Source: Escherichia phage phiWec179. From it: a stretch of DNA of 64,000 nt. The stretch lies in sequence record LC739533.1. One strand, 5' to 3'. The notes under the pieces were generated by a model. The model was not told the origin of the DNA and did no database searches. It saw only the letters and a program-made list of their open reading frames with translations. Of the stretch, positions 1 through 51,411 are shown one piece after another. The translations under genes and the position numbers were made by a program. The first letter of the stretch is position 1; the number at the start of each line of letters is the position of its first letter.

Positions 1-35
1 GATTTAGCCATGATGTTAATCTCTTTTTCAGTGAG

Positions 36-94
36 GCGGGAACTATTCCCGCGCCCTATGTAATACAGTTTACTCTTTTTATTCGTGCTGTCAA
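36..94 (-). promoter_or_regulatory. Early promoter (TTGACA-N16-TAAACT) with conserved 5' leader hairpin, copy 1
   Basis: Minus strand: -35 TTGACA (89-94), 16-nt spacer, -10 TAAACT (67-72), then GTATTACATAGGGCG and perfect hairpin GCGGGAA/TTCCCGC (36-52). ATG of the next leftward gene is at 9-11; that gene runs off the window. Confidence 0.6.
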
Positions 95-100
95 TGCTTT

Positions 101-454
101 TTATAAATCTTTTTTACGTTTTACATCGCTTGCATGACTGTATACAGCGATCCCATTATCACGACAAAAACGGGTAAGGTATGATCCGCGTGAAAACTCT
201 TTCCCTTCCAGGTCAACAACCTTGCTAAATTCTTCCAGGGCAACGGTATCAAAATGATCACCATAACCATATTGAAACGGCACGTTAACAACTTCAATCA
301 ATTTACCGCCGATCTCAACGTCCACGCTTAAAGAAAAATATGTGTTACCGTAGGACTGTTGAAACCAGCGACGGGCGCTAATGTGAACGGCTTCAATCTC
401 ACCAATTTTAAATTGAGTGTTACCCAGGATCGCAACGTTGATATTTTTAGCCAT
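101..454 (-). CDS. Hypothetical protein (117 aa)
   Basis: Intact ORF in the leftward early cluster; no motif recognised. Confidence 0.6.
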   Translation of the reverse strand: MAKNINVAILGNTQFKIGEIEAVHISARRWFQQSYGNTYFSLSVDVEIGGKLIEVVNVPFQYGYGDHFDTVALEEFSKVVDLEGKEFSRGSYLTRFCRDNGIAVYSHASDVKRKKDL

Positions 455-550
455 GATTTTTTCTCTCTTTTTGGTTAGTGGGAAGTGTTCCCGATAAAAG
501 TTATTATGCTTATACTATCGTTTTTTGTCAATAGTATAAGACTAAAACTT

Positions 551-730
551 TTAACGATAATCATCGTAGGCTTTATTAACCTGGCGAATATAACATTCGA
601 AAGCGAGATCAATAGAATCATATTCCCGCACATAATCCCCGTAAGAAACTACATACACACCTTTTTGATCCTCAAACGTCATGATGATAGAATCCAGGCC
701 GATGATTTCAGTTTTAGCGATGATAGTCAT
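551..730 (-). CDS. Small hypothetical protein (59 aa)
   Basis: ORF MTIIAKTEIIGLD...; just downstream of promoter copy 2; not in the ORF track (<60 aa). Confidence 0.45.
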   Translation of the reverse strand: MTIIAKTEIIGLDSIIMTFEDQKGVYVVSYGDYVREYDSIDLAFECYIRQVNKAYDDYR

Positions 731-751
731 AATAATAACCTTTTTATTGTT

Positions 752-808
752 GGCGGCACCATTGCCGCCCTACGTGATAAACTATACCAGAATTTTAAAC
801 AGTGTCAA
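752..808 (-). promoter_or_regulatory. Early promoter (TTGACA-N16-TATAGT) with conserved 5' leader hairpin, copy 2
   Basis: Minus strand: -35 (803-808), -10 (781-786), then TTATCACGTAGGGCGG and perfect 7-bp hairpin GGCGGCA-AUGG-UGCCGCC (752-769). Confidence 0.6.
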
Positions 809-818
809 ACGTTTTTTC

Positions 819-1064
819 TTAGTTTGCGAAATATGGCGCGGCGGCTGATGCCGTTAATCTCCAAGTGATTTGGCTATCGATCAAGTATTCTTCATTCTTG
901 ATCCGCACGGTATCAATCGAGAAGTTACTGAAAGGCTTGCTCTTGATTTTACGAACAACCGTTACACGACGGTTATTTTTCATCTCTTTTAACTGAATCC
1001 AGGCGTAACCTTTTTCATTGACAAATATTTCATTGTGATTGGTGATAGATGATAAGTGTTTCAT
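819..1064 (-). CDS. Hypothetical protein (81 aa)
   Basis: ORF directly downstream of promoter copy 3. Confidence 0.55.
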   Translation of the reverse strand: MKHLSSITNHNEIFVNEKGYAWIQLKEMKNNRRVTVVRKIKSKPFSNFSIDTVRIKNEEYLIDSQITWRLTASAAAPYFAN

Positions 1065-1087
1065 GATTTTTCTCTCTTCTGTTTTGA

Positions 1088-1147
1088 GCGGTGGACCATT
1101 CCGCCGCCCTATGTGTTACATCTTACTACTTTTTTAAACATTGTCAA
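1088..1147 (-). promoter_or_regulatory. Early promoter (TTGACA-N16-TAAGAT) with conserved 5' leader hairpin, copy 3
   Basis: Minus strand: -35 (1142-1147), -10 (1120-1125), then GTAACACATAGGGCGGCGG and hairpin (1088-1107, one mismatch). Confidence 0.6.
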
Positions 1148-1565: not shown

Positions 1566-1649
1566 TTACAGTGTCCAAAGAATGATTTCAAGTGCAGCAC
1601 GGAAACCAGGAATAAAATTGATTGCAAAAAACAGGGAAGTAGTAAACAT
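1566..1649 (-). CDS. Putative tiny hydrophobic peptide (27 aa)
   Basis: MFTTSLFFAINFIPGFRAALEIILWTL; ATG about 20 nt downstream of the copy 4 hairpin. Confidence 0.25.
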   Translation of the reverse strand: MFTTSLFFAINFIPGFRAALEIILWTL

Positions 1650-1671
1650 TTTTCTATCCTTTCAGTTGTGA

Positions 1672-1727
1672 GCGGCACCATTGCCGCCTGATGAGTTAAC
1701 TATAAGGGATCACGTTTTACCTGTCAA
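1672..1727 (-). promoter_or_regulatory. Early promoter (TTGACA-N17-TATAGT) with conserved 5' leader hairpin, copy 4
   Basis: Minus strand: -35 (1722-1727), -10 (1699-1704), then TAACTCATCAGGCGG and hairpin GCGGCAAUGGUGCCGC (1672-1687). Confidence 0.55.
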
Positions 1728-2551: not shown

Positions 2552-2824
2552 TTACAGCAAAAAGTTTACTTGTCTTGCTGTTAATGTAGTATCAACCATT
2601 TTCGGGCTTTTATAATTGACAAAACGCGCGGTTTTTTCAATAGCGAAGCCGAGATAATCTTGTTTGTTGAAATTACATTCTTTCTTAAATGTTTCCCGTG
2701 CAATGGCGATCGCTGCGTCCAGGGATAAACGCCCGTCAATATTGATATTTGCGAAAGATCCGCCACCGCTCATAGGTTTACCAGTGGTGCCCGTTACGAT
2801 CATTGTTGCGCTATATGATGCCAT
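2552..2824 (-). CDS. Hypothetical protein (90 aa)
   Basis: Start taken at the internal Met (MASYSATMIV...) downstream of the copy 5 hairpin; the track start at 2860 lies inside the hairpin. Confidence 0.55.
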   Translation of the reverse strand: MASYSATMIVTGTTGKPMSGGGSFANINIDGRLSLDAAIAIARETFKKECNFNKQDYLGFAIEKTARFVNYKSPKMVDTTLTARQVNFLL

Positions 2825-2846
2825 GATGATAATCTCTCTTAGTTGT

Positions 2847-2908
2847 GAGCGGTGGACCATTCCGCCGCTCTACGTGATACATCTTATCAGGTTGTTGCCT
2901 GTTGTCAA
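2847..2908 (-). promoter_or_regulatory. Early promoter (TTGACA-N16-TAAGAT) with conserved 5' leader hairpin, copy 5
   Basis: Minus strand: -35 (2903-2908), -10 (2881-2886), then GTATCACGTAGAGCGGCGG and hairpin 2847-2870. Confidence 0.6.
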
Positions 2909-3112: not shown

Positions 3113-3309
3113 GATCTTAACTCCAGGTGATGAATGATGTTTTTTGTTGGTTGACGGTGGATTATGGAGATCCTCACCTTTGCCCGTCCTGCATTGCGCC
3201 CTCCTGTTGTTTATTGTCGTTGTGCCTCGCCCCCCTCGACAAGATTAATACTACGCTACCAGGTGCGGAACGTCAACGACTTTTTCAATCTTTTTTATTT
3301 TCTTTTTGC

Positions 3310-3338
3310 TTGCTATATATAAAGGAAAGGGCTATCAT
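3310..3338 (+). promoter_or_regulatory. Putative sigma70-like promoter (TTGCTA-N17-TATCAT)
   Basis: Hexamers at 3310-3315 and 3333-3338, upstream of the rightward ORF at 3387. Confidence 0.35.
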
Positions 3339-3386
3339 CTTTCTACCGCGCCAACCAGGGCGCACAACAGAAGAAAGGGCGACACC

Positions 3387-3653
3387 ATGACAACTACTAC
3401 ATTACACCTTATGCACTCGTTAGGCTGGCAAGGCGGCACGGTCCACCAGGTAGCAAGCGCAACGGGCTTAAAGGTTGAAACAGTTCTCAACCTGGGCGAT
3501 CATAAAGTGGAAGAGATAGACCATTTTGATCCGTTCGCTGATGGTTATCTCTGGGCTTGCAGTGGCGGCGGGGAAAGCAAGATACCGCCAGCCGCGCGGG
3601 GCGATATGCATTTTTGGTTAGGTGTTCTCTCCTGGCAAGAAAACAAAAAATAA
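3387..3653 (+). CDS. Hypothetical protein (88 aa)
   Basis: ORF MTTTTLHLMHSLGWQGG...; divergent from the leftward cluster. Confidence 0.45.
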   Translation: MTTTTLHLMHSLGWQGGTVHQVASATGLKVETVLNLGDHKVEEIDHFDPFADGYLWACSGGGESKIPPAARGDMHFWLGVLSWQENKK

Positions 3654-3655
3654 TC

Positions 3656-3684
3656 TTGACAAGCCCAGGGATCGGGCTTATACT
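3656..3684 (+). promoter_or_regulatory. Consensus sigma70 promoter (TTGACA-N17-TATACT) firing into a non-coding region
   Basis: Perfect -35 at 3656-3661, 17-nt spacer, -10 TATACT at 3679-3684. No credible ORF with an RBS lies downstream before about 4470. Confidence 0.6.
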
Positions 3685-3908
3685 GTTTTACATACAGAAG
3701 AGGAAGCGCCACCCCACGGCGTAAAGGCGGGGCTAACATACCAGGGGCACTGGTTGGAAGGTCGATCGCCGGGAGGCTGGGCGCTATATATTTGTAAAGA
3801 AATGTAAAGATAAAATAATCGCTTGCTTTCCTGGCTGGATCTGTTATTCTTATTACATGGCGAGGGGACACGGGAGCGCGAGACAATCACCGGACCTGCC
3901 CGTCATTC

Positions 3909-4020
3909 TGCAAATGAGAAAAATTCTCATTTGCAAATAAGACTCATTCGCATTTAATAATTGAATGAGAATCATTCTCATTCTCATTCGTATTTCGATT
4001 TTAAGTGAGAATAATTCTCA
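3909..4020. repeat. Three palindromic operator-like sites with core TGAGAA-N1-3-TTCTCA
   Basis: Palindromes at 3909-3935 (12-bp arms), 3963-3983 (10-bp arms) and 4006-4020 (7-bp arms). Confidence 0.7.
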
Positions 4021-4034
4021 TTTCGGTAATTTTC

Positions 4035-4219
4035 ACGTAAACTTTAGAATTTGCTTTTCAACTTTCACTTTTGTAAAAGCAAAAAAACTTTAAATACCTG
4101 GTGCGCGCGACTTTTTAAAAAATTTTTCTCGGTTTTTTGCTTTGAAATCTGGCCCACCAATTTGAGATAGTGTACGTAAACTTTAGAATTTGGTTTTGGA
4201 TTCTCACTTTTGTAAACTC
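4035..4219. repeat. Imperfect ~46-bp direct repeat pair plus TTGAGATA triplet
   Basis: ACGTAAACTTTAGAATTT identical at 4035-4052 and 4174-4191, with similar extensions ending ACTTTTGTAAA. TTGAGATA occurs at 4162, 4248 and 4271. AT-rich context. Confidence 0.7.
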
Positions 4220-4375
4220 GTAAAAAGTTTAAATAATTGTAGGGATTTTGAGATAGTTTGCTTGTAAGGTTTGAGATAATCCTTCCCGAAGATGTTACGC
4301 AGCCTACAGCCTACCTGAATGCTCGTCTAACGAGATTAACTCTAAAAGATGAGTGTTGGTGTAGCTAAAGAGAAA

Positions 4376-4402
4376 AGGCTCTCTACGGTGTTGTAGGAGC
4401 CT
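4376..4402. terminator. Intrinsic terminator hairpin, probably bidirectional
   Basis: Stem AGGCUC/GAGCCU with extended CUAC/GUAG pairing; T-rich tail on the minus strand (UUUUCUCUUU) after the leftward operon, weaker T-tract on plus. Confidence 0.55.
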
Positions 4403-4473
4403 TATTTCTGTGGCACAAAGTTGACGTATTCTTTTTAAAAACGAATTTTTTCAAAATATCACGAATATCGCCT

Positions 4474-5555: not shown

Positions 5556-6561
5556 AATTTTCCTCCTGTCTCATTATTCCACCTGCTTGGTTGATAGCAC
5601 TTAAGACAACAGCCAAATCCTCACGCAGGAAGGTTTCACTATGACCGTCTTTCATGTGCAACGCTTCCACACAGCCGATAGACGGTAGGATCTGATCAGT
5701 CTTAGATTTTAGCTTACTCTCTAACGCCCTGCAAGCCTGGTAGGACGGCAGATCAAACAATGCTACACGTTGCATAAAGTAGTTATTATTTGCATTCTGA
5801 ATCTTCAAACGTATATCACTATCCTTTGCAATCCCCAGCTTGAAAGCTCCCGTATCTTCTCCATACTCATCAAGGATAACGTTGATGTAAAATTCTTGCT
5901 GTGATCTGCCTTTACATTCAGAACAACCATTCCCACTTAGATACTTATTAGGTGTTATCGTTTGTTCTCCGTGCTCACTACATAAATATTTAAACTTAGA
6001 CATGGTTCCCACCTTACCAACGAACCCTATAAACTGGTCCCCTCGTTCCTGGCAAGCTTCAGTCATACGGAAAATCCATTGCGCAGGAGTGTAACGATGG
6101 TTTTTAGAACAACGGCAAGCAAGCAGCCCATCTCTAAGACTGCTCCTCGTTACTTCAAACCTACCGTTACACACGCCAGCCTTTACATATTCGTCATGAG
6201 AACATACGGAACACTTAACTATCCAATAAGCCGCCCATCCTTTACTATCTAATCTATCACTACGATAATACTCACGCGGAACGTTATCAGGACACGCTTT
6301 GTTAAAGGTTGTGATATGGATTGAATCATCAATTAAACATGTTTGCCTTATTGCTTCCACCCTACAACCTTTACAACCACTTCCTATTTTAGCATTATCT
6401 ATAGAAGTTGTTCTCCATTCCCCATGTATAGAACATTCACAGGTTAGTTTAGTGCGTGCCCCCTTCCATTCACCATGCCACCCCGTAATGGTCCACGGTT
6501 TATCCTGGTAAGCTTGTTCTATTTCTTCCTGATATTCCTCCCAACTTTTAGCCCTCATCAT
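5545..6561 (-). CDS. T5orf172-type (GIY-YIG superfamily) domain protein with N-terminal Cys-rich repeats; homing-endonuclease-like
   Basis: C-terminus FKLGIAKDSDIRLKIQN...ACRALESKL...KDGHSETF fits the T5orf172 pattern; CxxC / C..HG repeats in the N-terminal part. Paralog of 10129..11082. Confidence 0.6.
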   Translation of the reverse strand: MMRAKSWEEYQEEIEQAYQDKPWTITGWHGEWKGARTKLTCECSIHGEWRTTSIDNAKIGSGCKGCRVEAIRQTCLIDDSIHITTFNKACPDNVPREYYRSDRLDSKGWAAYWIVKCSVCSHDEYVKAGVCNGRFEVTRSSLRDGLLACRCSKNHRYTPAQWIFRMTEACQERGDQFIGFVGKVGTMSKFKYLCSEHGEQTITPNKYLSGNGCSECKGRSQQEFYINVILDEYGEDTGAFKLGIAKDSDIRLKIQNANNNYFMQRVALFDLPSYQACRALESKLKSKTDQILPSIGCVEALHMKDGHSETFLREDLAVVLSAINQAGGIMRQEENYVN

Positions 6562-6575
6562 CCCCCCTACAACAA

Positions 6576-6593
6576 ATGCCCCTTGCGGGGCAT
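6576..6593 (-). terminator. GC hairpin (AUGCCCC-UUGC-GGGGCAU), terminator-like
   Basis: Between the AAA+ ATPase stop and the T5orf172 start; weak U-tract on the minus strand. Same GCCCCTTGCGGGGC core as the late terminator at 49347-49360. Confidence 0.35.
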
Positions 6594-6598
6594 CTTTA

Positions 6599-7806: not shown

Positions 7807-8166
7807 TTAGATCCCTTCGCCTTTAGTGATGATAGCTTCCATCACCACAGCTTTCTTCTTACGTTGAACATCTTGACGGATCAGGAGGCTACCACCTTGA
7901 TCATCCTTATACTGCTTCATGATGATGAAGTTGTTGCCACACACAGCGCCGATAGCCACGTATGGGCGATTAGAATTATCCACATCCGCAGATGGGGTTA
8001 CATCCGTGCAAGTAAAGAACTTGCCATCAGGATCAGTATAAGCAAAGTGGCCTTTAGCAGTTACTGCAACTTCTCCGGTGCTTGTGGACTGTGCAGCCAC
8101 AAACGGTGCAGCAGATGCTACGAAACTTGCAGACAGCAGGGCTACAGCTAAAATAATCTTTTTCAT
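7807..8166 (-). CDS. Secreted protein with N-terminal signal peptide (119 aa)
   Basis: MKKIILAVALLSASFVASA then mature domain; AGAGGAG RBS. Confidence 0.65.
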   Translation of the reverse strand: MKKIILAVALLSASFVASAAPFVAAQSTSTGEVAVTAKGHFAYTDPDGKFFTCTDVTPSADVDNSNRPYVAIGAVCGNNFIIMKQYKDDQGGSLLIRQDVQRKKKAVVMEAIITKGEGI

Positions 8167-22769: not shown

Positions 22770-23236
22770 ATTGTTCAGGCTATGAAGCAACAGACATGCT
22801 TAACGGAGAAGGGGTGAGATGCTCTCTATGGGTCAGTGGATGTAGCCACGGATGCAGAGGATGTTTCAATCAGAAAGCCTGGTCATACTCTTACGGCGCA
22901 GCTTTCACAGAAGCAGATGTAGAACGTGTGTTAGCAGATTTGGCACGACCTTTCATTAAAGGTGTAACAATCTTAGGGGGAGAACCTTTAGACCCACAGA
23001 ATATTGATGAAGTTTATAAGTTGATACTCCGAATCAAGGAAGTGTACGGGGAAGATAAGGATGTGATGGTGTATACAGGATATTTGTTTGAAGACATTCC
23101 TTCCCACATCAAGAATGTTGTGGATACAATCATGGATGGTAAATATGATTTAAATCAACCAACAGCAAAGCCATTCAGAGGTTCTGATAATCAGAGATTA
23201 TGGAACAAGAAGAATGGTATTTGGCAAGCAGATTAA
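22766..23236 (+). CDS. nrdG: Anaerobic RNR activating protein (radical SAM)
   Basis: CSHGCRGC (CxxxCxxC) cluster. Probable TTG start; N-terminus aligns with the E. coli NrdG N-terminus as recalled. Confidence 0.8.
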   Translation: MNCSGYEATDMLNGEGVRCSLWVSGCSHGCRGCFNQKAWSYSYGAAFTEADVERVLADLARPFIKGVTILGGEPLDPQNIDEVYKLILRIKEVYGEDKDVMVYTGYLFEDIPSHIKNVVDTIMDGKYDLNQPTAKPFRGSDNQRLWNKKNGIWQAD

Positions 23237-23249
23237 TACAGGAGATAAT

Positions 23250-23441
23250 ATGGTTACGTATTTTGCAGTTAAAAACGAAGTAGGGACGGCTGGGAAGCTG
23301 ATTCTGGACAGCGATCGAGATACCCGTGAGGTTATTTGTACCCTGATTGATATTTTACAAAGAAAAGAGTTGCTTTCTGATCGGGACATTGCTAATCTAT
23401 TGGATATCGGCGGTGACGAACTCGAACGACTGCCATTCTAA
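23250..23441 (+). CDS. Hypothetical protein (63 aa)
   Basis: Start at MVTYFAVKNEV with AGGAG RBS. Confidence 0.45.
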   Translation: MVTYFAVKNEVGTAGKLILDSDRDTREVICTLIDILQRKELLSDRDIANLLDIGGDELERLPF

Positions 23442-23453
23442 AGGAGACTAACA

Positions 23454-24056
23454 ATGCAACAACTGATCGTTAATATGCCTCGCACTGGTAATGAAGTTTT
23501 TGGCTCACCAGTAGACAAAGTTTGGAAAGCACACTTTCATCTGACCTTAGCCGAGGTAAGTAGTAAAGAGCTTATGCGAGCAGCAAAGATTATCGGTGCA
23601 AAATGCACAACTATCGATCTACATCGGGACACGCAATCACAGCGCGATCGTATGTTAACTAAGTATCAGGGTGGCATTGACACAGGCTTAATGTTGGAAT
23701 GTGTGGCAAAGTTAAAAGCGGCTGGCTTCAAAGTGTTACGCTATAAACTGGAACAAATGTTCAAGGACGTAGAACACGTAATGCAGATGAACCTAAGCAA
23801 AGAACATTACGGAGAAGTACACATCAAGACTCCTGCCTCTATGCCGGAGATTGATACTGGCTTCTTCCGTATCTCTTCTAATGCCGAAGAGGTGGATTAT
23901 CGTTTCTATAATGCCCGTCTGTATACCGAAGAAGATAAGTTGCAGTTCAAGAAAGCTTATGATATGCTTCTGGCAAATGATGTTGAAATAAAGGGCTACC
24001 ATGTAGAACAAGTGGTAGTAGACAGTAATCTTAACTTAGACGCATGGTGGGCTTAA
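23454..24056 (+). CDS. Hypothetical protein (200 aa)
   Basis: Intact ORF with AAGGAG RBS. One H-x-T-x element (HLTL) but no clear second one, so no family call. Confidence 0.55.
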   Translation: MQQLIVNMPRTGNEVFGSPVDKVWKAHFHLTLAEVSSKELMRAAKIIGAKCTTIDLHRDTQSQRDRMLTKYQGGIDTGLMLECVAKLKAAGFKVLRYKLEQMFKDVEHVMQMNLSKEHYGEVHIKTPASMPEIDTGFFRISSNAEEVDYRFYNARLYTEEDKLQFKKAYDMLLANDVEIKGYHVEQVVVDSNLNLDAWWA

Positions 24057-24057
24057 T

Positions 24058-24714
24058 ATGACTATTAAACATATCTCTTTTGATGTATGGAACACACTGA
24101 TCACAGCAAACCCCAATTACGCAGATATGCGAGCGTGGACTATCGCAAAATACGGGGATATTACGGAAGTAGAAGCAAGAGCAGCTTACAAGAAGATCAA
24201 AAAGGAACTGGACAATGCCGCACTTCAGGGAACAGCCGAGTGTGCAGCATATGCCTGGGAAAGACTTGGTTACGAACTTGGGATAACACCTTTGAAGTCT
24301 GCAAAGCTTCGTTTCGAGTGTGAACAGTGGTTCCTTAAGTTTCCACCGCATGTGGCTGTGGATTTACCGATGCACTTGCTGTATCTTTCGGGGCGTTATG
24401 ATTTGAGCATCAAGAGTAATACCAACTTCATATCAGGAGATATCTTGCGACGTGCCTGTAAGTTTGAAGGTTGGAATTGTTTTGAGTTCACACATTTCTC
24501 GGATGAAGCTTTACTTTGTAAACCAGATCCGCGATTCTTTGCTCGCACGATCACTTATTCTCCAATCCCTCTGGTAGGGCAGGAAGTGTTGCACGTAGGT
24601 GATAGTGAAGAATATGATGGAAAATGTGTTGACGTAGGATTTAACTTCTGTCATATTAAGAACCCTAACGACTTGTTAGATAAACTTGCTAAAGGAGAAC
24701 TTGTTAATGCGTAA
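24058..24714 (+). CDS. HAD-superfamily hydrolase-like protein
   Basis: Motif I-like ISFDVWNTLI (second Asp replaced), motif II SIKSNTN, motif III CKPDP, motif IV VGDSEEYD. Confidence 0.5.
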   Translation: MTIKHISFDVWNTLITANPNYADMRAWTIAKYGDITEVEARAAYKKIKKELDNAALQGTAECAAYAWERLGYELGITPLKSAKLRFECEQWFLKFPPHVAVDLPMHLLYLSGRYDLSIKSNTNFISGDILRRACKFEGWNCFEFTHFSDEALLCKPDPRFFARTITYSPIPLVGQEVLHVGDSEEYDGKCVDVGFNFCHIKNPNDLLDKLAKGELVNA

Positions 24715-25534
24715 TCAAACTCAAATCTTTGCTCACAAATTCGATAGTCTGGAAACTGCTCGCTTTGATATTCGTGACTATTCCAAACTGAAGTTTGGCA
24801 GCAACCAGGCGGCTCGCCGTATGGGGCGAACGCTGGCAGTCTCTTTCTATGACTTGGTAGTCAAGAATATGCCGGAAGAAGAATTTGTGGTGATTCCTTC
24901 ACCTTACAACCATGTGCATAACGCAGCAACCATGATGACCAATCAGTTCATCAACTTCCTGAACCTGTTGCTGTTGAATCACAAGGGTAGCCGTGCAGTA
25001 GAATTGGATACGATCCACCGCAAGGTGAGTTACATTAACGATTATGGTTTCCTGGACAAAGCGAGCCGTAAGAAACTGATTGATGGTGACACCTTCTATT
25101 GCAACAAAGATTTTTGGGGCAACAAGAAGCTGATCTTCATTGATGATGTGAACATCACGGGAACTCATGAAGACAAACTGATTGAGATCCTGGATGAAAA
25201 TAAAGTTACGAATGATGTTTACTTCCTGTATTTTGCGAAGTATACTGGTAATCAAGCAGACACAGAGGCTAAACTGAACTTCAACCATATTAACACGACA
25301 GATGCTTTTGTTAAGATGATCAATGAAGAATGTGATGCGCAGTGTCTTGTTCGTCCTATCAAGTATTTGATGGGACAAACACCGGAAGAGTTTAAAATCA
25401 TTCTTTCCCGTTTGCCGCACCAATACGTAGAAGCACTGTTCTTTGGGTGTCTTGGGGAAGGTTATGATAAGATCGAGAAGTATTCTGAAAACTTCGTCTT
25501 CCTGAACCGTTACTTTAACCAGCATATCCTGTAA
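24707..25534 (+). CDS. Type I phosphoribosyltransferase (PRTase) domain protein
   Basis: PRPP-binding loop KLIFIDDVNITGTHED. Start at MRNQTQ after AAAGGAG RBS. Confidence 0.65.
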   Translation: MRNQTQIFAHKFDSLETARFDIRDYSKLKFGSNQAARRMGRTLAVSFYDLVVKNMPEEEFVVIPSPYNHVHNAATMMTNQFINFLNLLLLNHKGSRAVELDTIHRKVSYINDYGFLDKASRKKLIDGDTFYCNKDFWGNKKLIFIDDVNITGTHEDKLIEILDENKVTNDVYFLYFAKYTGNQADTEAKLNFNHINTTDAFVKMINEECDAQCLVRPIKYLMGQTPEEFKIILSRLPHQYVEALFFGCLGEGYDKIEKYSENFVFLNRYFNQHIL

Positions 25535-25543
25535 GGAGGGAAA

Positions 25544-26026
25544 ATGTTGAAGGTTGTTACTGGGAATCTGATCGATGCCGCCAAGAATGGGAAAGTGAAC
25601 GTTATAGCCCACTGTTGTAACTGTATGTGTAATATGGGTGCAGGGATTGCTCCGCAAATTAAACGAGCATTTCCTTATGCATATGCAGCCGACTTGGATA
25701 CAGCGGCAGGTGATCAAAGCAAACTGGGTTCTTTTAGTTTAGGGGTGCCGGAGGAAGTGTCTGACCCACTGGTTTATAACCTGTACGGACAGTACCGTTA
25801 CGGGTATAACGGTAAAGGTCGTCAGTTGGACTATGATGCCCTGTACGATGCTCTTGAGGCTATGGCAAAGGATCTCCACAAATGGGTGAACACATCTGCC
25901 AAACATAAGATTGGTCTACCTATGATCGGAGCAGGGTTGGCAGGAGGTAATTGGGCTATCATTGAAGTGATGATTGAAGAAACTTTAGTAAAAACAGGTC
26001 ACGATGTGACTATTTATAAACTTTAA
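25544..26026 (+). CDS. Macro domain protein, TARG1/OARD1-like (ADP-ribose binding or hydrolysing)
   Basis: VNVIAHCCNCMCNMGAGIAPQIKRAFP and C-terminal LPMIGAGLAGGNWAIIEVMIEE...VTIYKL, close to recalled OARD1 motifs. Confidence 0.7.
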   Translation: MLKVVTGNLIDAAKNGKVNVIAHCCNCMCNMGAGIAPQIKRAFPYAYAADLDTAAGDQSKLGSFSLGVPEEVSDPLVYNLYGQYRYGYNGKGRQLDYDALYDALEAMAKDLHKWVNTSAKHKIGLPMIGAGLAGGNWAIIEVMIEETLVKTGHDVTIYKL

Positions 26027-26039
26027 GAGGAGAAATAAT

Positions 26040-26261
26040 ATGGGTGTTGTTGCAGGTGTTCTGGCAGTAGTTATCGTGTTTGTTCTGGCTTTCCTGATTA
26101 GTATGATTCCAGCATGGCTTCTGCTGCTGGCTTATAACTACGTTGTTGAAATGATGGGTCACACAGATATCACTGTTCCTATCACCTTCTGGACTGTGGT
26201 GTGTGTGGCATTTATCATGGCTGTACTACGTGGGATCTTTTCCTCAAGTTCTTCAAAATAA
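26040..26261 (+). CDS. Small membrane protein (73 aa)
   Basis: Two hydrophobic helices. Confidence 0.5.
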   Translation: MGVVAGVLAVVIVFVLAFLISMIPAWLLLLAYNYVVEMMGHTDITVPITFWTVVCVAFIMAVLRGIFSSSSSK

Positions 26262-26264
26262 GTG

Positions 26265-26323
26265 TTGACAAGGTTTTAGAATAGAGTAAGATGTATCACA
26301 TGAGGCGGGGAGTGGTTCCCCGC
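26265..26323 (+). promoter_or_regulatory. Conserved early promoter (TTGACA-N16-TAAGAT) with 5' leader hairpin, plus-strand copy upstream of terC
   Basis: -35 (26265-26270), -10 (26287-26292), then GTATCACATGAGGCGG and hairpin GCGGGGA/TCCCCGC (26305-26323). Confidence 0.6.
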
Positions 26324-26342
26324 AAAGAGAAAGGAGAAAATA

Positions 26343-27317
26343 ATGCAACTTGGTTTTCCAATCATTGATGTAGTGGTGTTGGTAGGTATTCTTGTTCTGT
26401 CGATCTGTGTTGACTTTTTTGGTCATCGTGAAAACAAGGAGATCTCTTTCAAATCCGCTGTGGCTTGGTCAGTATTCTGGATTGGTGTGTCTTTAGCCTA
26501 CTACGGTTTTGTATACTTCCAGCACGGCGCAGCTTTTGCAAACTTATTCTTGAGTGGATATGTGTTAGAGAAGTCGCTCTCGGTAGATAACTTGGTAGTG
26601 TTTGTAGCAGTGTTCTCCAGTTTCGGGATTAAGAGCACACACTTACAACACAAAATTCTACTCTGGGGTATTGCAGGTGCGATTGTCTTCCGAGGTGTGT
26701 TTGTAGCAGCAGGGACTTATCTGCTAAGTTTGGGTTGGTTTGTTAATATCATCTTCGGTGCTGTTATCCTGTTCTGTGCTTTTAAAATGGTAATGGCTGG
26801 CGGTGATGATGAAGAAGTGGATTACTCTAAACATTGGGCGACACGCTTTGTACGTAAACTATTCCCAGTATCGGATCAGATGGATGGCGAGAAGTTCTTC
26901 ACAATTAAGAATGGTGTTCGTGTAGCAACTCCGGCTCTGGTTTGTGTGTTCGTGATGGAAATGGTGGATGTGATCTTTGCAGTAGACTCGGTTCCGGCTG
27001 TAATTGCAGTGACACAAGAACCACTGCTTGTATTCTCTTCGATGCTCTGTGCAATCTTAGGCTTACGTGCTCTGTTCTTTGTTCTTAGTGTGGCCCTGAA
27101 GTATCTGGTTCACCTGGAAAAAGCAGTTATCGCAGTCCTGGTGTTTGTTGGTGTGAAACTGATGTATCACCCGTTTGCAGAAACGCTGCACGCAAAAGTG
27201 AGCTTCCTGCCAGCGCATATTGACCCGACGATCAGCATGTATATCGTGCTTGGTACTCTGACCCTGGGCGTGATTGCAAGTTTCATCTTCCCTGAAAAAG
27301 AAGAAGCTACCGCTTAA
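26343..27317 (+). CDS. terC: TerC-family integral membrane protein
   Basis: Signature segments EKSLSVDNLVVF and AVDSVPAVIAVTQEPLLVFSSMLCAILGLRALFF; multiple transmembrane helices. Confidence 0.85.
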   Translation: MQLGFPIIDVVVLVGILVLSICVDFFGHRENKEISFKSAVAWSVFWIGVSLAYYGFVYFQHGAAFANLFLSGYVLEKSLSVDNLVVFVAVFSSFGIKSTHLQHKILLWGIAGAIVFRGVFVAAGTYLLSLGWFVNIIFGAVILFCAFKMVMAGGDDEEVDYSKHWATRFVRKLFPVSDQMDGEKFFTIKNGVRVATPALVCVFVMEMVDVIFAVDSVPAVIAVTQEPLLVFSSMLCAILGLRALFFVLSVALKYLVHLEKAVIAVLVFVGVKLMYHPFAETLHAKVSFLPAHIDPTISMYIVLGTLTLGVIASFIFPEKEEATA

Positions 27318-27325
27318 TACCAATG

Positions 27326-27347
27326 AACCTCCTTCGGGAGGTTTCTT
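27326..27347 (+). terminator. Rho-independent terminator
   Basis: Stem AACCTCC / GGAGGTT with TTCG loop, followed by a T-rich tract. Confidence 0.65.
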
Positions 27348-27365
27348 ACTAACATAGGAGGAATT

Positions 27366-27716
27366 ATGTCTGTATATTTTGACGATGTTCAGGAATATGT
27401 TTGGTGTCTTTCTGGCACAATCTCGGAAGTAGAAGCTGCGATTCAAGAGGTTTTTCCTTACGCTTATGTAGAAGTTAAACAGGCACCTCCTATGGATCTT
27501 CCCCCTAATGTGGAAGCTTGTTGTGGTTCCGGCGAGGGTACAGTCATCCCAGTTCTGCGTTACGAACTACAAGCAGCAAGTGCAAATGTCGATGATATTA
27601 TTACAGAAATTAAGGCGTATGGTTTCTGGACCTCTCCTTACGCTAAATGGGATAACTCTGACACTTGGGATTTATTCTTCTGGGATAATGAGACAGATGA
27701 CGAGGTATTTCTGTAA
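27366..27716 (+). CDS. Hypothetical acidic protein (116 aa)
   Basis: Intact ORF with AGGAGG RBS. Confidence 0.55.
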   Translation: MSVYFDDVQEYVWCLSGTISEVEAAIQEVFPYAYVEVKQAPPMDLPPNVEACCGSGEGTVIPVLRYELQAASANVDDIITEIKAYGFWTSPYAKWDNSDTWDLFFWDNETDDEVFL

Positions 27717-28840: not shown

Positions 28841-29431
28841 ATGAATACCGAGAGAGATTTAAAACTCTTGTGGTGGGAAGTGATGCAGGAGATCAAGGAG
28901 GATTTCCCTGTTTACTACAACATGCTACGTGAAGCTGGATATACGGCTTGCGTTAGGAACAAAGTGAATAACTCTTTCGGTTGGTGCAACTACCGAGAAA
29001 AGATTGTTGTTGTGAATTGGCACTTGCATAAAAACTCCACAAGGGATATGATAGTGGACACAATGAAGCATGAGATTGCTCATGCGATCGACGGTTGTAT
29101 GGGTAAGTTCAGTCGTCATGGACCACACTGGCAAAAGCTGGCAGCAGAGTTGGGAGCCAATCCTAAAGCTACTTCCAAAGAACCGTTAAACCATGAGTAC
29201 AAATATGTTCTTGTTTTGGTGGACAGATTTGCCACAAGATGTGTTAGAGGGTATAATCGTAAACCTAACCGTATGACTCCAGGGAAACAACCACATATTT
29301 GGTTGAAGAGTGATAAAGAGGGGACAGAAGGAAAAATATGGTTGTATAAATGGGAAGATTGGGTTAAAGTAGCTAAAGAATATGGTGTTTCACCTTACAC
29401 AAGAGAAATAGAAGAGGAGAATGAAGAATGA
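28841..29431 (+). CDS. SprT-like zinc metalloprotease domain protein
   Basis: HExxH motif MKHEIAHAI followed by HGPHW. Confidence 0.5.
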   Translation: MNTERDLKLLWWEVMQEIKEDFPVYYNMLREAGYTACVRNKVNNSFGWCNYREKIVVVNWHLHKNSTRDMIVDTMKHEIAHAIDGCMGKFSRHGPHWQKLAAELGANPKATSKEPLNHEYKYVLVLVDRFATRCVRGYNRKPNRMTPGKQPHIWLKSDKEGTEGKIWLYKWEDWVKVAKEYGVSPYTREIEEENEE

Positions 29432-46648: not shown

Positions 46649-49324
46649 TTAGTCGTAATATTTCAAACCTGTAATAAACTTCGATCCCCAATCCGCACTT
46701 GCGGCGGTGAACGTCAACATCCAAGTTGTAGCTGTACCAGTGAAGACCTCTCGTTGCACAGTACCATCAGTGTGGTAAATGTCCACGCCAGTATGTCCAT
46801 TCTTAGGAATAGTGAAGGTAACAGCACTGGTAGTGTCTCGTGCATAAGAACAAACAAATGGTGTCCCCGCCCAGACTGGATTTGTCAAATCACCCATCTC
46901 AAGTTGTGGAACCCAAGCAATAAGACCTGCCGTACCATCTCCTGCGAAAGTGTCTGATCCACTTGCATTCAAAGCTATAATCTCATAGGTTATAGATGCT
47001 TGTTTGGCAACTGTCACTTTGTGTAGAATTACACGATACCAACCATTCCCCATATCGATTATGTTTGCATCTGCACCTGTAAATGTTCCAGCTACAAGAT
47101 CATAAGTCCCTTCGTTAATCTCATCTCCTGAAGTCAATTTGAGTTTCACTTTAGTGATCCCGTCTGGCTTCAAGAATACGGATGCCGCCCAGTGCTTACC
47201 TGCTGTAATATCAGAAGCTGTATTCACTGCTGATAAAATATGTTGTCCTGAAGTTGTAGAAGGTGTTAACTTGTAAGTGTTAGCCGTAGTTCCAATCGGA
47301 GAGTTGATTGTTGATGCTGTGACTGTCAAGTTCGTCTTCAACCACGGGGAAGCTGTTGTCAAGTTATTGTTGATAAAGATATGTGTACGGTTGGCTGCTA
47401 CAACACGTCTACCTTGTGGAGTTGTACCAACATATTCTAAAGGTGCTACGGGAGCAGAACTCTCTGTAGGTACAAGGATATCTCCAGAAGTCCTGGCATA
47501 ACGGTTACTCCTGTTGACCTTTACATCCACCGGAATAGTTTCTTGCGTCAAATCATAGTCCATCACAATCACCACAGCATTCACTGCGAGATAAGAACTA
47601 TCTTCGGCAGTTACCACGCCTTGATAAGTTGCTCTACAACCAATACGACAATCTCCATCAGTAACCGCTGTAATAACGCCTGTAACGGGGTCAACTGTTG
47701 CTACTGTAGGGTCGTTAGAGAAATACTCAACAACCATACCAGGGAGGTTTTCTGCCCCTGCTGGGGTTATTTCTGCCACCAATGTTTGCGTTGTCCCTTC
47801 ATCCATAGCTGAAAGACTTGGAGTATACACTTCCAACGTTGAAGCATAACCTCCAGAGCTATCTGATAAAGTTGTTCCTGCTGCATTCAGTGCTGTCATC
47901 CCCGCATCAAAACCACCTTCAGCCACAAACGTCATCAAACCAGAAGCAGATATTGTCATGTACGCTGGGGCAGATGTTGTGTAAGCTTCATTGAAGATTT
48001 TGGCTCCTGAAGGACTTACTGAATAGGTTAACTGTTTGCTCCCACCAACAATACAAATACCTAAAGAATCTGTAGTTAAACTGGTAGCCAACTCTGATCC
48101 TAAGATCGAATCTTGTGAAATAGGTGCGAACTTGTTAGAATTCAACGTCCCATTAAACAGAGGATTGGTCTTACCATCAACAGTAACACCAGAGTAAAAC
48201 AGATTACCATCGTAGACAAAGAAAGTTGCATGGTAGCCTAACTGGTTAGTCACATCCAGATTCTGACTGTGGACACTTGTTAGTTTGCTCATGTCCCAAC
48301 TCGGAACACCTTCGGGCTTAAGAGGCTTCTCAACAACCAAAGGATCTGTTGCCAGAGATGCGTAACCAACACCTAAGTTTCCTGTGTAGTTTTTACCTAC
48401 AGCCCACAAACTGTTATTAATACTTAAGAAGAAAGCGTGGCGACTCATTGGGAAACTCCATGCAGAGAAACCGCCAGAGAAGTTGCTTACTTTCGTATAA
48501 GTTGTCGCAGTGTTAGAACGTGCATACAAATAATTCGTTGTTCCAGTACCGCCAGAGGTATCTCCAATTACCAATGTCTGGGAAACTGTGTTAACGTAAT
48601 CTTTCACATAAACTGTTTCGGTAGAAGATATAGTCGCAGTAACGAAAGCTGTTGTTGTACTGTTGTTACCTGCCATACCTTTGCTTGCACCGCAAACACG
48701 TAATGAACCAACGTTGTTAAGGTAAGAACATTGGTTGTATCCTGCATCAAATGCTAAAGCAACAGAAGTTATTTGACGTGGACTTGGGATTTGGTTAGTA
48801 TTACTTGAACCAAGGCTCCCCACTGTGTTTTGTCCTGAACCATAAAGCACTCCATTGTTCATGAGCCACAAGGTATTATTATAACCCCCTTTAACCTCTT
48901 TCAGGTTGGCTAAGGTTATGATTGAGGTAATAGACGATGGGAAGCTGGTCCACGTAGTCATGCAAACATCAGCGCCGCCAGCGGCTGTAGATCCAACAAG
49001 ACCTGCTAACAAGCCAGCATACTGCCAACCACCACTTTGAAGCTTGATAACGAAGCAACGATCTGCCGGAAATATATCTTCTGCTGTTGTTGATGCCAAA
49101 TGGAAGGTAGAGTATTTTGCTGTACGTGTGCCGTCAGCAATCTCTCCGAACACATTATCCCCTTGAGTGAATAAACGCCCATCGTTCAAGAGGAGAGCTA
49201 AACTGGTTTTAGAGTTGCCAGAAGCGTCTGGGTAATCTAAAGTTATTACTTTCTTGATTATTCCTGCTGGAAGTGGAACTACACCTGTGCTGGTCATAAT
49301 CATCATTACTGGAATTGGAAACAT
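46649..49324 (-). CDS. Tail fibre / receptor-binding protein with Ig-like (Big_2-type) domain (891 aa)
   Basis: Segment NDPTVATVDPVTGVITAVTDGDCRIGCRATYQG resembles a bacterial Ig-like domain; Ser/Thr/Gly-rich beta-rich composition; sits in the late fibre block. Confidence 0.65.
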   Translation of the reverse strand: MFPIPVMMIMTSTGVVPLPAGIIKKVITLDYPDASGNSKTSLALLLNDGRLFTQGDNVFGEIADGTRTAKYSTFHLASTTAEDIFPADRCFVIKLQSGGWQYAGLLAGLVGSTAAGGADVCMTTWTSFPSSITSIITLANLKEVKGGYNNTLWLMNNGVLYGSGQNTVGSLGSSNTNQIPSPRQITSVALAFDAGYNQCSYLNNVGSLRVCGASKGMAGNNSTTTAFVTATISSTETVYVKDYVNTVSQTLVIGDTSGGTGTTNYLYARSNTATTYTKVSNFSGGFSAWSFPMSRHAFFLSINNSLWAVGKNYTGNLGVGYASLATDPLVVEKPLKPEGVPSWDMSKLTSVHSQNLDVTNQLGYHATFFVYDGNLFYSGVTVDGKTNPLFNGTLNSNKFAPISQDSILGSELATSLTTDSLGICIVGGSKQLTYSVSPSGAKIFNEAYTTSAPAYMTISASGLMTFVAEGGFDAGMTALNAAGTTLSDSSGGYASTLEVYTPSLSAMDEGTTQTLVAEITPAGAENLPGMVVEYFSNDPTVATVDPVTGVITAVTDGDCRIGCRATYQGVVTAEDSSYLAVNAVVIVMDYDLTQETIPVDVKVNRSNRYARTSGDILVPTESSAPVAPLEYVGTTPQGRRVVAANRTHIFINNNLTTASPWLKTNLTVTASTINSPIGTTANTYKLTPSTTSGQHILSAVNTASDITAGKHWAASVFLKPDGITKVKLKLTSGDEINEGTYDLVAGTFTGADANIIDMGNGWYRVILHKVTVAKQASITYEIIALNASGSDTFAGDGTAGLIAWVPQLEMGDLTNPVWAGTPFVCSYARDTTSAVTFTIPKNGHTGVDIYHTDGTVQREVFTGTATTWMLTFTAASADWGSKFITGLKYYD

Positions 49325-49344
49325 TTTTATCCTCCATAAAAGAA

Positions 49345-49362
49345 AAGCCCCTTGCGGGGCTT
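49345..49362 (-). terminator. Intrinsic terminator between tail-fibre genes
   Basis: Stem AAGCCCC / GGGGCTT with TTGC loop and U-tract on the minus strand; RBS GGAGG of the next gene follows. Confidence 0.6.
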
Positions 49363-49365
49363 CTA

Positions 49366-51411
49366 TTATCGTGTTACAACAACCATGTCCACGATATTAC
49401 CCGCACCTGGATACGTCAACTGTAGAATTGTCACAGCACTTGCTGCTGTTGCTACATCCGTATCGTTCAGTGCTCCGTAAGACGCATCCAGCGTCACGGT
49501 GTGTCCCGTTGTATCTTGCAGAAGGTAAATCATTGCAGAGAAAGCTTTCGGTTTTGTAGCTCCTGTAACTCCAGGCCATGCCCCGATCGTCAATGCATCT
49601 GTAACGTTGACCACGTACATATTGGTCGCCCCAGAAGGAGTCCAAGAAGTACCTGAACTTGCTACGGTAGTAGTTTCAAGTTCAAGATAACCTGCTGTTA
49701 CTTTTGTAGGCGTTATTGCCTCTGTAGGATCGCCAGCCGAGATTTCAATCCAATCACCATCAGAACGCCCGTAGGTCAAACCATCTTCAGGAGCTTCAGG
49801 AATGCTTGGAAGTGTACCAACTTGCGTCCAAACAGTAGCAGCGGTTTTCTTAAAGACAGCCCCTGTTGCAGTGTTGAAAGCGTAGTCGTTAATAACACCT
49901 TCGGCATTGGTTGGGTTGGTTGCAGCTACAAACCATTGCGCCCCGTCCTTACCATCTGTTCCATTAGTCCCTGGTGTACCGTTAGTTCCGTTTGTCCCGT
50001 TAGTACCTGCTGGACCTGGATCACCCTTATCCCCTTTGTCACCTTTATCGCCTTTTATGCTACCCATGTCAACAAAAGAGGCGGTGTTCGTATCTTTGTC
50101 GTAAGTGTAAATATAAAGGTTACTGGTGTCTTCTGTCAGATAAGCATCGCCATAGTTGTTGTACGTTGGCAGCGCAGAACCGTTTGGTACATGACCTTTG
50201 GCAGTGATAGATGTTCCACCAAGGCTTCCTACGTTCATCCAGTCTGTAGCGCCTTCTACCCAAACATACAAGTTGTTGTTGATAATATATGCATCACCAA
50301 CTTCCCCTGTTGCTGGGAGTTCAGATTCATTAGAGAGAACGTCTAAGATTTCCAAGCCAGAGCCTGTTGCCCCAACTGGACCTTGCGGACCTATTTCACC
50401 CTGATCGCCCTGTTCACCTTGAATCCCTTGGTCGCCTTTCTCACCTTTGATCGCTGCGATAAAATCTACTTCCGTCCCTGTGTTACCAATATCTAACCAA
50501 GATTGGTAAGCTGACTTCCCTTCGTCACCATCTGTCCCATCAAGACCATCAGTACCTGCTTCACCCTGCGGACCTTGTGGGCCTACAATGTTACCCATGT
50601 TAACCCAGTCTTCACCATTGGAGACATAAAGATATCCACCAATAGAGTAAGCTTGGCTTACGTTATTTGGGTTAGCTGCTGGTAGGTTAGCAGTAGAGTC
50701 AAGATCCCCACGGTAATCAAAACCGTTCGCATTAAGACCTGCTGCCCCTTGTGGACCTTGAGGACCAACGTCTCCTCGATCTCCTTTCAGAGATGCCAAG
50801 TAGTCGTAAATTGTACCAGTATTACCTACTGACAACCACACTTGGTACGCTGACTTCCCTTCTGGACCCAAAGAAGAAATCATTTTCCAAGTTGCGCCGT
50901 CCCAAGCGTAAATGGCATCTCCGACAATCCAACCGTCCCCTAAAGCATTACCTGTTGTAGGTAATTGGTTGATGTTGTTCAAAGATCCTTTGATATTTAA
51001 TTGTGCGCCAGTGTCACCTTTAAGAGACGCTAACCATTGTTGTTCTGTGCCTACGAAACCATTATCCAGAGCAATCTGGTAGGCTGATTTCCCAGCTTCA
51101 GGGATTTGAGTAGAGATGTTATTGATCTCTTGCTGCATTATTGCAAAACGGGCATTAATTACTGCGATATCATCAGCAGTACCTACGCTCTCCCATCCAG
51201 TGGAGTTAATACCACCTGTGCTTGCCGGAGTAGAGTTCTCAGGAACAACTTTCGGAAAAGCACCTTTCCATTTATAATAGTTACCGTCATCATCTAAAAG
51301 CAGAACTTCACGGGCATTACGTAAAGTAAATCCCGCTGCAAAGCTTCGACGTTTACGGTACGTAGCTTCGACCATATCTGCAATCGAGCTATTCGGTCTT
51401 GTTAAAAGCAT
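49366..51411 (-). CDS. Tail fibre protein with collagen-like Gly-X-Y tracts and phage tail-fibre repeats (681 aa)
   Basis: GDKGDKGDKGDPGPAGTNGTNGTNGTPGTNGTDGKDG, GPQGPQGEAGTDGLDGTDGDEG, GEKGDQGIQGEQGDQGEIGPQGPVG; three copies of GKSAYQ.WL..GNTGT...D(Y/F)(L/I)A.(L/I)KG. Confidence 0.75.
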   Translation of the reverse strand: MLLTRPNSSIADMVEATYRKRRSFAAGFTLRNAREVLLLDDDGNYYKWKGAFPKVVPENSTPASTGGINSTGWESVGTADDIAVINARFAIMQQEINNISTQIPEAGKSAYQIALDNGFVGTEQQWLASLKGDTGAQLNIKGSLNNINQLPTTGNALGDGWIVGDAIYAWDGATWKMISSLGPEGKSAYQVWLSVGNTGTIYDYLASLKGDRGDVGPQGPQGAAGLNANGFDYRGDLDSTANLPAANPNNVSQAYSIGGYLYVSNGEDWVNMGNIVGPQGPQGEAGTDGLDGTDGDEGKSAYQSWLDIGNTGTEVDFIAAIKGEKGDQGIQGEQGDQGEIGPQGPVGATGSGLEILDVLSNESELPATGEVGDAYIINNNLYVWVEGATDWMNVGSLGGTSITAKGHVPNGSALPTYNNYGDAYLTEDTSNLYIYTYDKDTNTASFVDMGSIKGDKGDKGDKGDPGPAGTNGTNGTNGTPGTNGTDGKDGAQWFVAATNPTNAEGVINDYAFNTATGAVFKKTAATVWTQVGTLPSIPEAPEDGLTYGRSDGDWIEISAGDPTEAITPTKVTAGYLELETTTVASSGTSWTPSGATNMYVVNVTDALTIGAWPGVTGATKPKAFSAMIYLLQDTTGHTVTLDASYGALNDTDVATAASAVTILQLTYPGAGNIVDMVVVTR

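Follow-up and report, generated by a model that had tools for sequence, protein, structure and literature searches.

The 64,000-nucleotide stretch of Escherichia phage phiWec179 analysed here (LC739533.1), which we call the window, carries on its plus strand a gene for an integral membrane protein of the TerC/Alx family (terC) within a co-directional gene array. The terC product matches PF03741 with E=1e-39 and 136.5 bits against a cut-off of 27.8, which bears out the gene identity proposed in an earlier note on this DNA. Upstream of terC, and downstream of nrdD/nrdG, lie genes for HAD-like, PRTase_3, Macro-domain and 73-aa membrane proteins, and together with terC this set constitutes an abbreviated Ter system; components of Ter systems include PRTases, HAD enzymes and TerC, and the system has been proposed to act as a phage weapon against superinfecting phages (PMC7824862). 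Two genes downstream of terC, at 28841–29431, lies a gene for a protein with an SprT-like metalloprotease domain (PF10263, E=2e-9). Neighbouring genes in the array overlap or are separated by 2–15 nt, whereas the gap upstream of terC measures 81 nt and is wholly occupied by a cassette consisting of a promoter, a hairpin and a ribosome-binding site (RBS); none of the HAD-like, PRTase_3, Macro and 73-aa genes has a module of its own. Window positions 25500–27400 are 100% identical to Escherichia phage phiWec181 (LC739534.1; Stephanstirmvirinae, Phapecoctavirus), and position 1 of the window corresponds to position 48119 of the phiWec181 record, to which 'record' coordinates refer throughout. The features at the locus are as follows:

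24058–26261, plus strand: genes for a HAD-like hydrolase, a PRTase_3 protein (ComF-like, PF15610), a Macro-domain protein and a 73-aa membrane protein
26265–26270, plus strand: -35 hexamer TTGACA, 6/6 consensus, invariant across all family copies
26287–26292, plus strand: -10 hexamer TAAGAT, 4/6 consensus, with -12T, -11A and -7T present
26293–26304, plus strand: conserved discriminator and initial transcribed block GTATCACATGAG (family consensus GTATYACRTAGG, from copy alignments)
26305–26323, plus strand: hairpin of GCGGGGA (26305–26311), loop GTGGT and TCCCCGC (26317–26323), 7 bp, about -14 kcal/mol
26324–26342, plus strand: A-rich linker with Shine-Dalgarno site AGGAG (26332–26336) 6 nt 5' of the ATG, a layout common to all copies
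26343–27317, plus strand: terC, 324 aa, TerC/Alx family integral membrane protein (PF03741)
27326–27343, plus strand: 3' hairpin AACCUCC-UUCG-GGAGGUU, then UCUUACU, 9 nt past the terC stop

The anatomy of the cassette can be read directly. The upstream gene ends in a stop codon at 26259–26261, and TTGACA begins 3 nt later; a 16-nt spacer separates it from TAAGAT, which recurs identically as the -10 of two other family members (copies 2908 and 1147, below), and the two hexamers together match the consensus at 10/12 positions. In hexamers, spacing and intergenic placement the site has the properties of a sigma-70-type (host) promoter, and its transcription start is predicted at the conserved purine A26300, 8 nt past the -10. 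The hairpin is offset from the -10 by 12 nt, and 19 nt (aaagagaaAGGAGaaaata) lie between its 3' end and the terC ATG (26343), giving a leader of about 43 nt with a single hairpin. This reading confirmed the module that the earlier note had described before terC, namely TTGACA and TAAGAT at a 16-nt spacing followed by a 7-bp hairpin.

A genome-wide search with a covariance model trained on the seven copies in the window, in which an E of 6e-5 or better counted as strong, returned 20 strong and about four weaker copies (about 20–24 in all). Every copy except that of terC lies on the minus strand at 39–51 kb of the record, directly before the Shine-Dalgarno site and ATG of a small ORF, and the terC copy is the sole family member outside the leftward small-ORF block. 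This block comprises about 100 small hypothetical genes (record 16.9–51 kb), and the cluster at the left end of the window is its promoter-proximal part. The copies in this cluster, named by their higher coordinate, are:

2822–2908, minus strand: family copy (promoter, hairpin and RBS) before a small ORF
1648–1727, minus strand: family copy
1062–1147, minus strand: family copy, nearest to the terC copy in sequence and part of an inverted repeat
728–808, minus strand: family copy
452–531, minus strand: degenerate family copy with a weak hairpin, GGGAA-CAC-UUCCC
9–94, minus strand: family copy

With these six left-end copies (2908, 1727, 1147, 808, 531 and 94), the terC copy is the seventh in the window and not the sixth, as had been counted earlier; likewise, the 'left-end cluster' of that count lies at the left end of the window but not at an end of the phage genome, given where the window begins in the record.

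That the terC copy belongs to this family was established by a leave-one-out model (R2), which was built from 19 minus-strand copies with the terC copy excluded and gave that copy 63.3 bits (E=3e-12); the best match outside the family in 106 kb reached 16.5 bits. Because its stems were misaligned, R2 retained just 3 base pairs and therefore serves as a sequence-based leave-one-out test only. A pattern of 28 specified bases, with at most three mismatches allowed, matched the window twice, against 0.00 matches expected from 100 shuffles. In addition, the elements of the terC copy follow one another in the order and register of the family, that is, -35, -10, GTATYACRTAGG block, GC hairpin, A-rich linker, Shine-Dalgarno site and ATG, and the copy departs from the family in its block (ATGAGG versus ATAGGG) and in having no UCAC flank 3' of the hairpin. 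Intergenic sigma-70-like promoters outside the family also occur in the window, and they have no hairpin (plus strand: 10076, 11437, 12795, 31311, 32599; minus strand: 7798, 11433); these near-consensus promoters stand directly before genes, with short leaders of 20–35 nt. The promoter of terC is thus in a class separate from theirs.

Several further features of the window were noted alongside. Just past the promoter-proximal end of the leftward block, an ORF-poor stretch with GC-rich segments (3130–4470) contains three copies of the palindrome AATGAGAAnnATTCTCATT (3912–4023), a 62-nt direct repeat (4035–4096 and 4174–4235) and, at 3656 on the plus strand, a promoter of perfect-consensus type followed by a GC-rich untranslated stretch; this region may contain an origin or operator or give rise to a non-coding RNA. 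A 50-nt repeat occurs in three diverged copies at 50474–51096, with spacings of 339 and 234 nt, and probably represents a repeated domain in a structural (fibre-like) gene. Similar terminator-like GCCCC-TTGC-GGGGC hairpins with common flanks are present at 6560–6595 and 49329–49364. A tRNA scan found no tRNA.

Folding predicts the hairpin in every family copy. Among the paralogous copies, 86% of cells are paired, versus 41–54% in slid controls, and 5/8 pairs have changes on both sides. When nine orthologous terC leaders were aligned, all seven core pairs were 100% paired, versus 50–65% in slid controls, and compensatory double changes were observed in five of the seven. The terC hairpin reads GCGGGGA-GUGGU-UCCCCGC or GCGGGGAA-UAG-UUCCCCGC in Phapecoctavirus, GCGGAGGA-UUG-UCCUCCGC in the phi92-like phages, and AGGGAGAG-AUAGG-CUCUCCCU, AGAGGGAG-AUAGG-CUCCCUCU or AAGAGGGGG-AUAGG-CUCCCUCUU in the Klebsiella relatives; in these orthologs it is placed 3' of a TTGACA or TTGACT -35 and a TAnnnT -10 and 5' of AGGAG and the ATG. 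The retention of promoter and hairpin while the stem sequence was replaced in a compensatory manner shows that the hairpin forms in RNA and that selection acts on its structure.

A recognition site is a different, and in our view rather unlikely, explanation for this conservation: the hairpin, its flank GTATYACRTAGGGCGG and an AAUGG-type loop would be bound by a phage or host RNA- or DNA-binding factor that controls all cassette transcripts jointly, for example by shutting off, processing or translationally repressing early messages, and terC would be co-regulated in trans with the small-ORF block. Conservation of flank and loop among the roughly 20 copies exceeds the needs of pairing, and GTATYACRTAGGGCGG and the AAUGG loop are strongly conserved across the E. 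coli and Klebsiella phage clusters, which counts against a purely structural role. The GCGGGAA-UGG-UUCCCGC theme recurs in the early cluster of a Klebsiella relative, the loop variants of terC in the E. coli phages (GUGGU and AAUAGUU) match variants in the cluster, and in phAPEC8 the phage-specific motif that PHIRE ranked as most repeated is the hairpin 20-mer. However, paralogous copies exchange by recombination, which is able to explain their similarity without a factor, and the analysis identified no candidate for such a binding protein. The terC hairpin evolves in concert with the cluster hairpins of its own phage in the E. coli Phapecoctavirus phages but not in Klebsiella phage phi1_175008, whose early-cluster hairpins are of the GCGGGAA-UGG-UUCCCGC type, as in the E. 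coli phages, and whose terC hairpin (AAGAGGGGG-AUAGG-CUCCCUCUU) is of another sequence type, its place being kept. This difference weakens the case for a trans-acting factor and favours structure; what is conserved at terC is promoter plus hairpin, rather than a shared recognition sequence. In the same Klebsiella phage, the small gene just 5' of terC has a module of its own (27 bits; L011:4096-4173, minus strand), so that two cassettes stand there in tandem.

The surroundings of the terC cassette are mosaic. Compared with phAPEC8, window positions 25946–26365, which run from the end of the Macro gene through the 73-aa gene and the module into the first ~20 nt of terC, are 95–100% identical, and a sharp mosaic boundary separates them from flanks of about 65–80% identity; the body of terC is about 65–75% identical (72% at the protein level, with a dS of 2.3), the right-hand break falling within the first ~50 nt of the gene, just past the module. 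The phi92-like phages share 93% TerC identity, with homology only from 26332 onward. These comparisons indicate that the terC allele has been exchanged, with the joint at the cassette. In the small-ORF block, phiWec181 has four cassettes more than phAPEC8 (record 47802–49191, window up to 1073), and at this indel phAPEC8 has a single chimeric module (7830–8050 within its 138000–147737 segment), whose upstream half matches the left phiWec181 copy and whose downstream gene matches the right copy. At both junctions examined (n=2), indel or replacement endpoints thus fall in the motifs, as they do in the promoter-early stem-loops (PeSLs) of T4-like phages (Arbiol et al. 2010, PMC2839356; Comeau et al. 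2014, PMC4122927), and at these two junctions the cassettes mark recombination joints as PeSLs do. The repeated cassette would then provide portable homology for exchanging gene cassettes between related phages.

The position of these joints also suggests a reading, which we judge improbable, in which the terC module is a recombination scar left by exchange of terC or of the 73-aa gene, has no selected function and leaves terC to be expressed by read-through. A mosaic joint right at the module and indel endpoints marked by modules are as this reading would have them, and the terminator scan revealed no convincing terminator on the plus strand from about 23200 to 26265, so that read-through into terC is also likely; in addition, two TerC-bearing relatives, L010 and L017 (Klebsiella phage FBKp34), manage without the module, which is therefore dispensable. 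Nevertheless, hexamers, spacing, hairpin and Shine-Dalgarno site are kept between lineages with a 30% difference in TerC protein sequence, the stem changes are compensatory and exhibit no decay, and 69 phage records contain the 81-nt module at a coverage of at least 80%.

That the stem-loop terminates or attenuates upstream transcription, so that the cassette insulates terC and restarts transcription as for the T4-like PeSLs, is very improbable: PeSL stem-loops are reported to be effective terminators (PMC2839356), and the terC hairpin is GC-rich, stable and situated in an intergenic site between two co-directional genes, but it lies downstream of the -10 and within the new transcript, it is followed by AAAGAGAAAGG instead of a U-tract (by UCACAAC, CAACAAU and similar in the other copies) and by CUCAUGUGAUAC on the opposite strand, and a terminator scan of both strands did not call it. 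The absence of a U-tract after the stem, which holds for all copies, therefore rules out an intrinsic (Rho-independent) terminator on sequence grounds.

Other roles known for leader hairpins were considered. The terC leader recalls the yybP-ykoY Mn riboswitch and the alx pH-responsive element in being an RNA leader before a gene of the TerC/Alx family, but it differs from them in having only about 43 nt and one hairpin, and in matching no Rfam model: the whole window gave 0 matches at the gathering score, yybP-ykoY and alx leaders included, and positions 26150–26450 searched at E up to 10 gave noise only (E of 2.9 or more). A riboswitch or known leader is therefore absent. An RNase III site is ruled out by inference, the 7–8 bp of the stem falling far short of the ~20 bp required. 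NAD-capping of the cassette 5' ends was considered as well and set aside, since A and G are about equally frequent at the predicted +1 of the copies. Transcripts of phage T7 gene 10 have a 5' stem-loop. Stabilizing 5' stem-loops have also been described for the E. coli ompA and papA mRNAs (Emory, Bouvet and Belasco 1992, as cited in PMC3997798), and the cassettes resemble these in that a short, stable hairpin opens the message 5' of an unstructured RBS. The accepted basis of such stabilization is that a 5'-terminal stem-loop blocks RppH and RNase E (PMC3997798; PMC8833179), which require at least two unpaired 5' nucleotides and favour at least three (PMC8833179). With the start placed from the -10 spacing, the hairpin begins 0–5 nt from it in all copies. 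In copies predicted to start with G, the flanks GUAG...CUCAC would pair the 5' end fully and leave 0 unpaired nucleotides, a further likeness to ompA and papA, and in copies predicted to start with A there are mostly three; the Klebsiella terC orthologs have 0–3 and the other copies 0–5. The terC copy, in contrast, has about five (range 4–6) at its predicted start, versus the 0–1 that block RppH and RNase E (PMC8833179). Because these nucleotides exceed what RppH and RNase E need, it is doubtful that the terC copy serves as an mRNA stabilizer, unless transcription starts at a point downstream of the predicted one; such a role is plausible, judging from the predicted starts, for copies with 0–3 unpaired nucleotides, that is, for much of the family. 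An internal obstacle to RNase E scanning is ruled out, plain internal stem-loops affording negligible protection (PMC11194081). We propose, as a plausible alternative function, that the hairpin acts as an insulator that keeps the A-rich RBS region free whichever ORF is attached.

At the other end of the gene, the hairpin at 27326–27343 is a putative weak terminator or 3' stabilizer that would close the terC unit. In 10/10 relatives examined, terC is followed by a GC hairpin whose loop is UUCG, UCCG or GAAA and whose tail is short and T-rich, and relatives without the 5' module still carry it. The 5' cassette and this conserved hairpin together argue that terC is a self-contained unit.

Our best reading, and one that is probably right, is that a sigma-70 promoter has been fused to a 5'-proximal RNA hairpin and that the cassette is a self-contained expression unit for terC. 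Unmodified host RNA polymerase would read the near-consensus promoter, a GC-rich stem-loop would form within the first ~25 nt of the terC transcript, and an unstructured A-rich linker with a strong Shine-Dalgarno site would come next. Protecting or standardizing the 5' end of the mRNA, through stability and through insulation of the RBS from its context, would be the most likely roles of the hairpin. Bounded by the cassette and the 3' UUCG hairpin, terC may form an autonomous, probably monocistronic unit inside the co-directional array, and we therefore propose that its expression would begin as soon as the cell is infected and would add to any upstream read-through.

The earlier note had placed terC under the phage's own early regulatory logic. 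The link to the small-ORF block holds, since the terC cassette is of the same family, but the promoter logic is that of the host's sigma-70, and early timing is a reasonable inference from the host consensus and from analogy with other phages. It had further been argued that the module speaks against terC being passive cargo. This does not follow from the module alone, and the argument is weak because such cassettes typically flank shuffled accessory ORFs and because terC has itself undergone allele exchange. Other evidence nonetheless supports a functional terC, mainly purifying selection (dN/dS 0.05–0.13), and also the presence of TerC in 176 phage records, the conserved promoter, hairpin and 3' hairpin and the HAD-like, PRTase_3 and Macro neighbours.

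Parts of the cassette have been annotated before. In the record of the type phage phAPEC8 (JX561091 / NC_020079), the terC site is labelled 'putative host dependent promoter determined with MEME', and a separate label, 'putative promoter determined with PHIRE', is given to the hairpin 20-mer RTAGGGCGGCAATGGTGCCG of the early block. At 138000–147737 of phAPEC8, these PHIRE 'promoters' (RTAGGGCGGCAATGGTGCCG) proved to be the hairpin halves of cassettes and no separate promoters. Thus, what we read as the two halves of one unit was entered there as two kinds of promoter, and that annotation is silent on the PHIRE motif being a hairpin, on the MEME and PHIRE halves forming one unit and on the hairpin at terC. 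Outside phAPEC8, the 81-nt module is unannotated among the matches listed. Our literature search found no description of a promoter-hairpin composite for the phAPEC8 phage group, and no usable transcriptome or transcription start site map for Phapecoctavirus, Stephanstirmvirinae or rV5-like phages; the rV5 paper gives 33 sigma-70-type promoters and, where it discusses them, mentions no hairpin.

Among known systems, the PeSLs offer a close likeness. Here, as there, a strong sigma-70-like early promoter and an adjacent stable GC-rich stem-loop form a composite motif, dozens of copies precede small orphan ORFs while a few isolated ones lie within conserved modules, and the joints of indels and replacements between close relatives fall in the motifs. 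The two systems differ in their hosts of residence, T4-like myoviruses versus a Phapecoctavirus of the Stephanstirmvirinae; in the placement of the stem-loop, which takes five positions in PeSLs and is fixed here at 12 nt past the -10, hence within the transcript; and in termination, which PeSL stem-loops bring about and for which the cassette stems have no U-tract. The lambdoid nut/boxB sites are similar in that a short promoter-proximal RNA hairpin stands beside a conserved linear motif and is repeated in early transcripts. However, the cassettes number about 20, one per gene, versus one nut site per operon, and neither an N-like protein nor downstream terminators to override were identified, so that the similarity is a resemblance only. 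Although real and conserved, the cassette represents an ordinary type of expression signal for a phage.

We also entertain a bolder and doubtful possibility, namely that the Stephanstirmvirinae have their own PeSL-like system, in which cassettes swap genes, terC alleles included, a phage factor reads flank and loop and sets the fate of all cassette transcripts, and terC, with its HAD, PRTase and Macro partners, is wired into an immediate-early host-takeover regulon. If this were true, terC in such a regulon could, for example, exclude superinfecting phages.

Current understanding is not overturned by these results, whose yield is chiefly better annotation: the 'PHIRE promoters' of phAPEC8-type genomes are RNA hairpins belonging to promoter cassettes. 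For the phage TerC gene, which is widely conserved and unexplained, they provide a testable picture of expression, with its own host-type promoter and a 3' hairpin, and terC would then not be merely a passenger of the nucleotide-metabolism operon. Finally, cassette-mediated gene shuffling, known from the T4-like phages, may also take place in an unrelated group of therapeutic coliphages.
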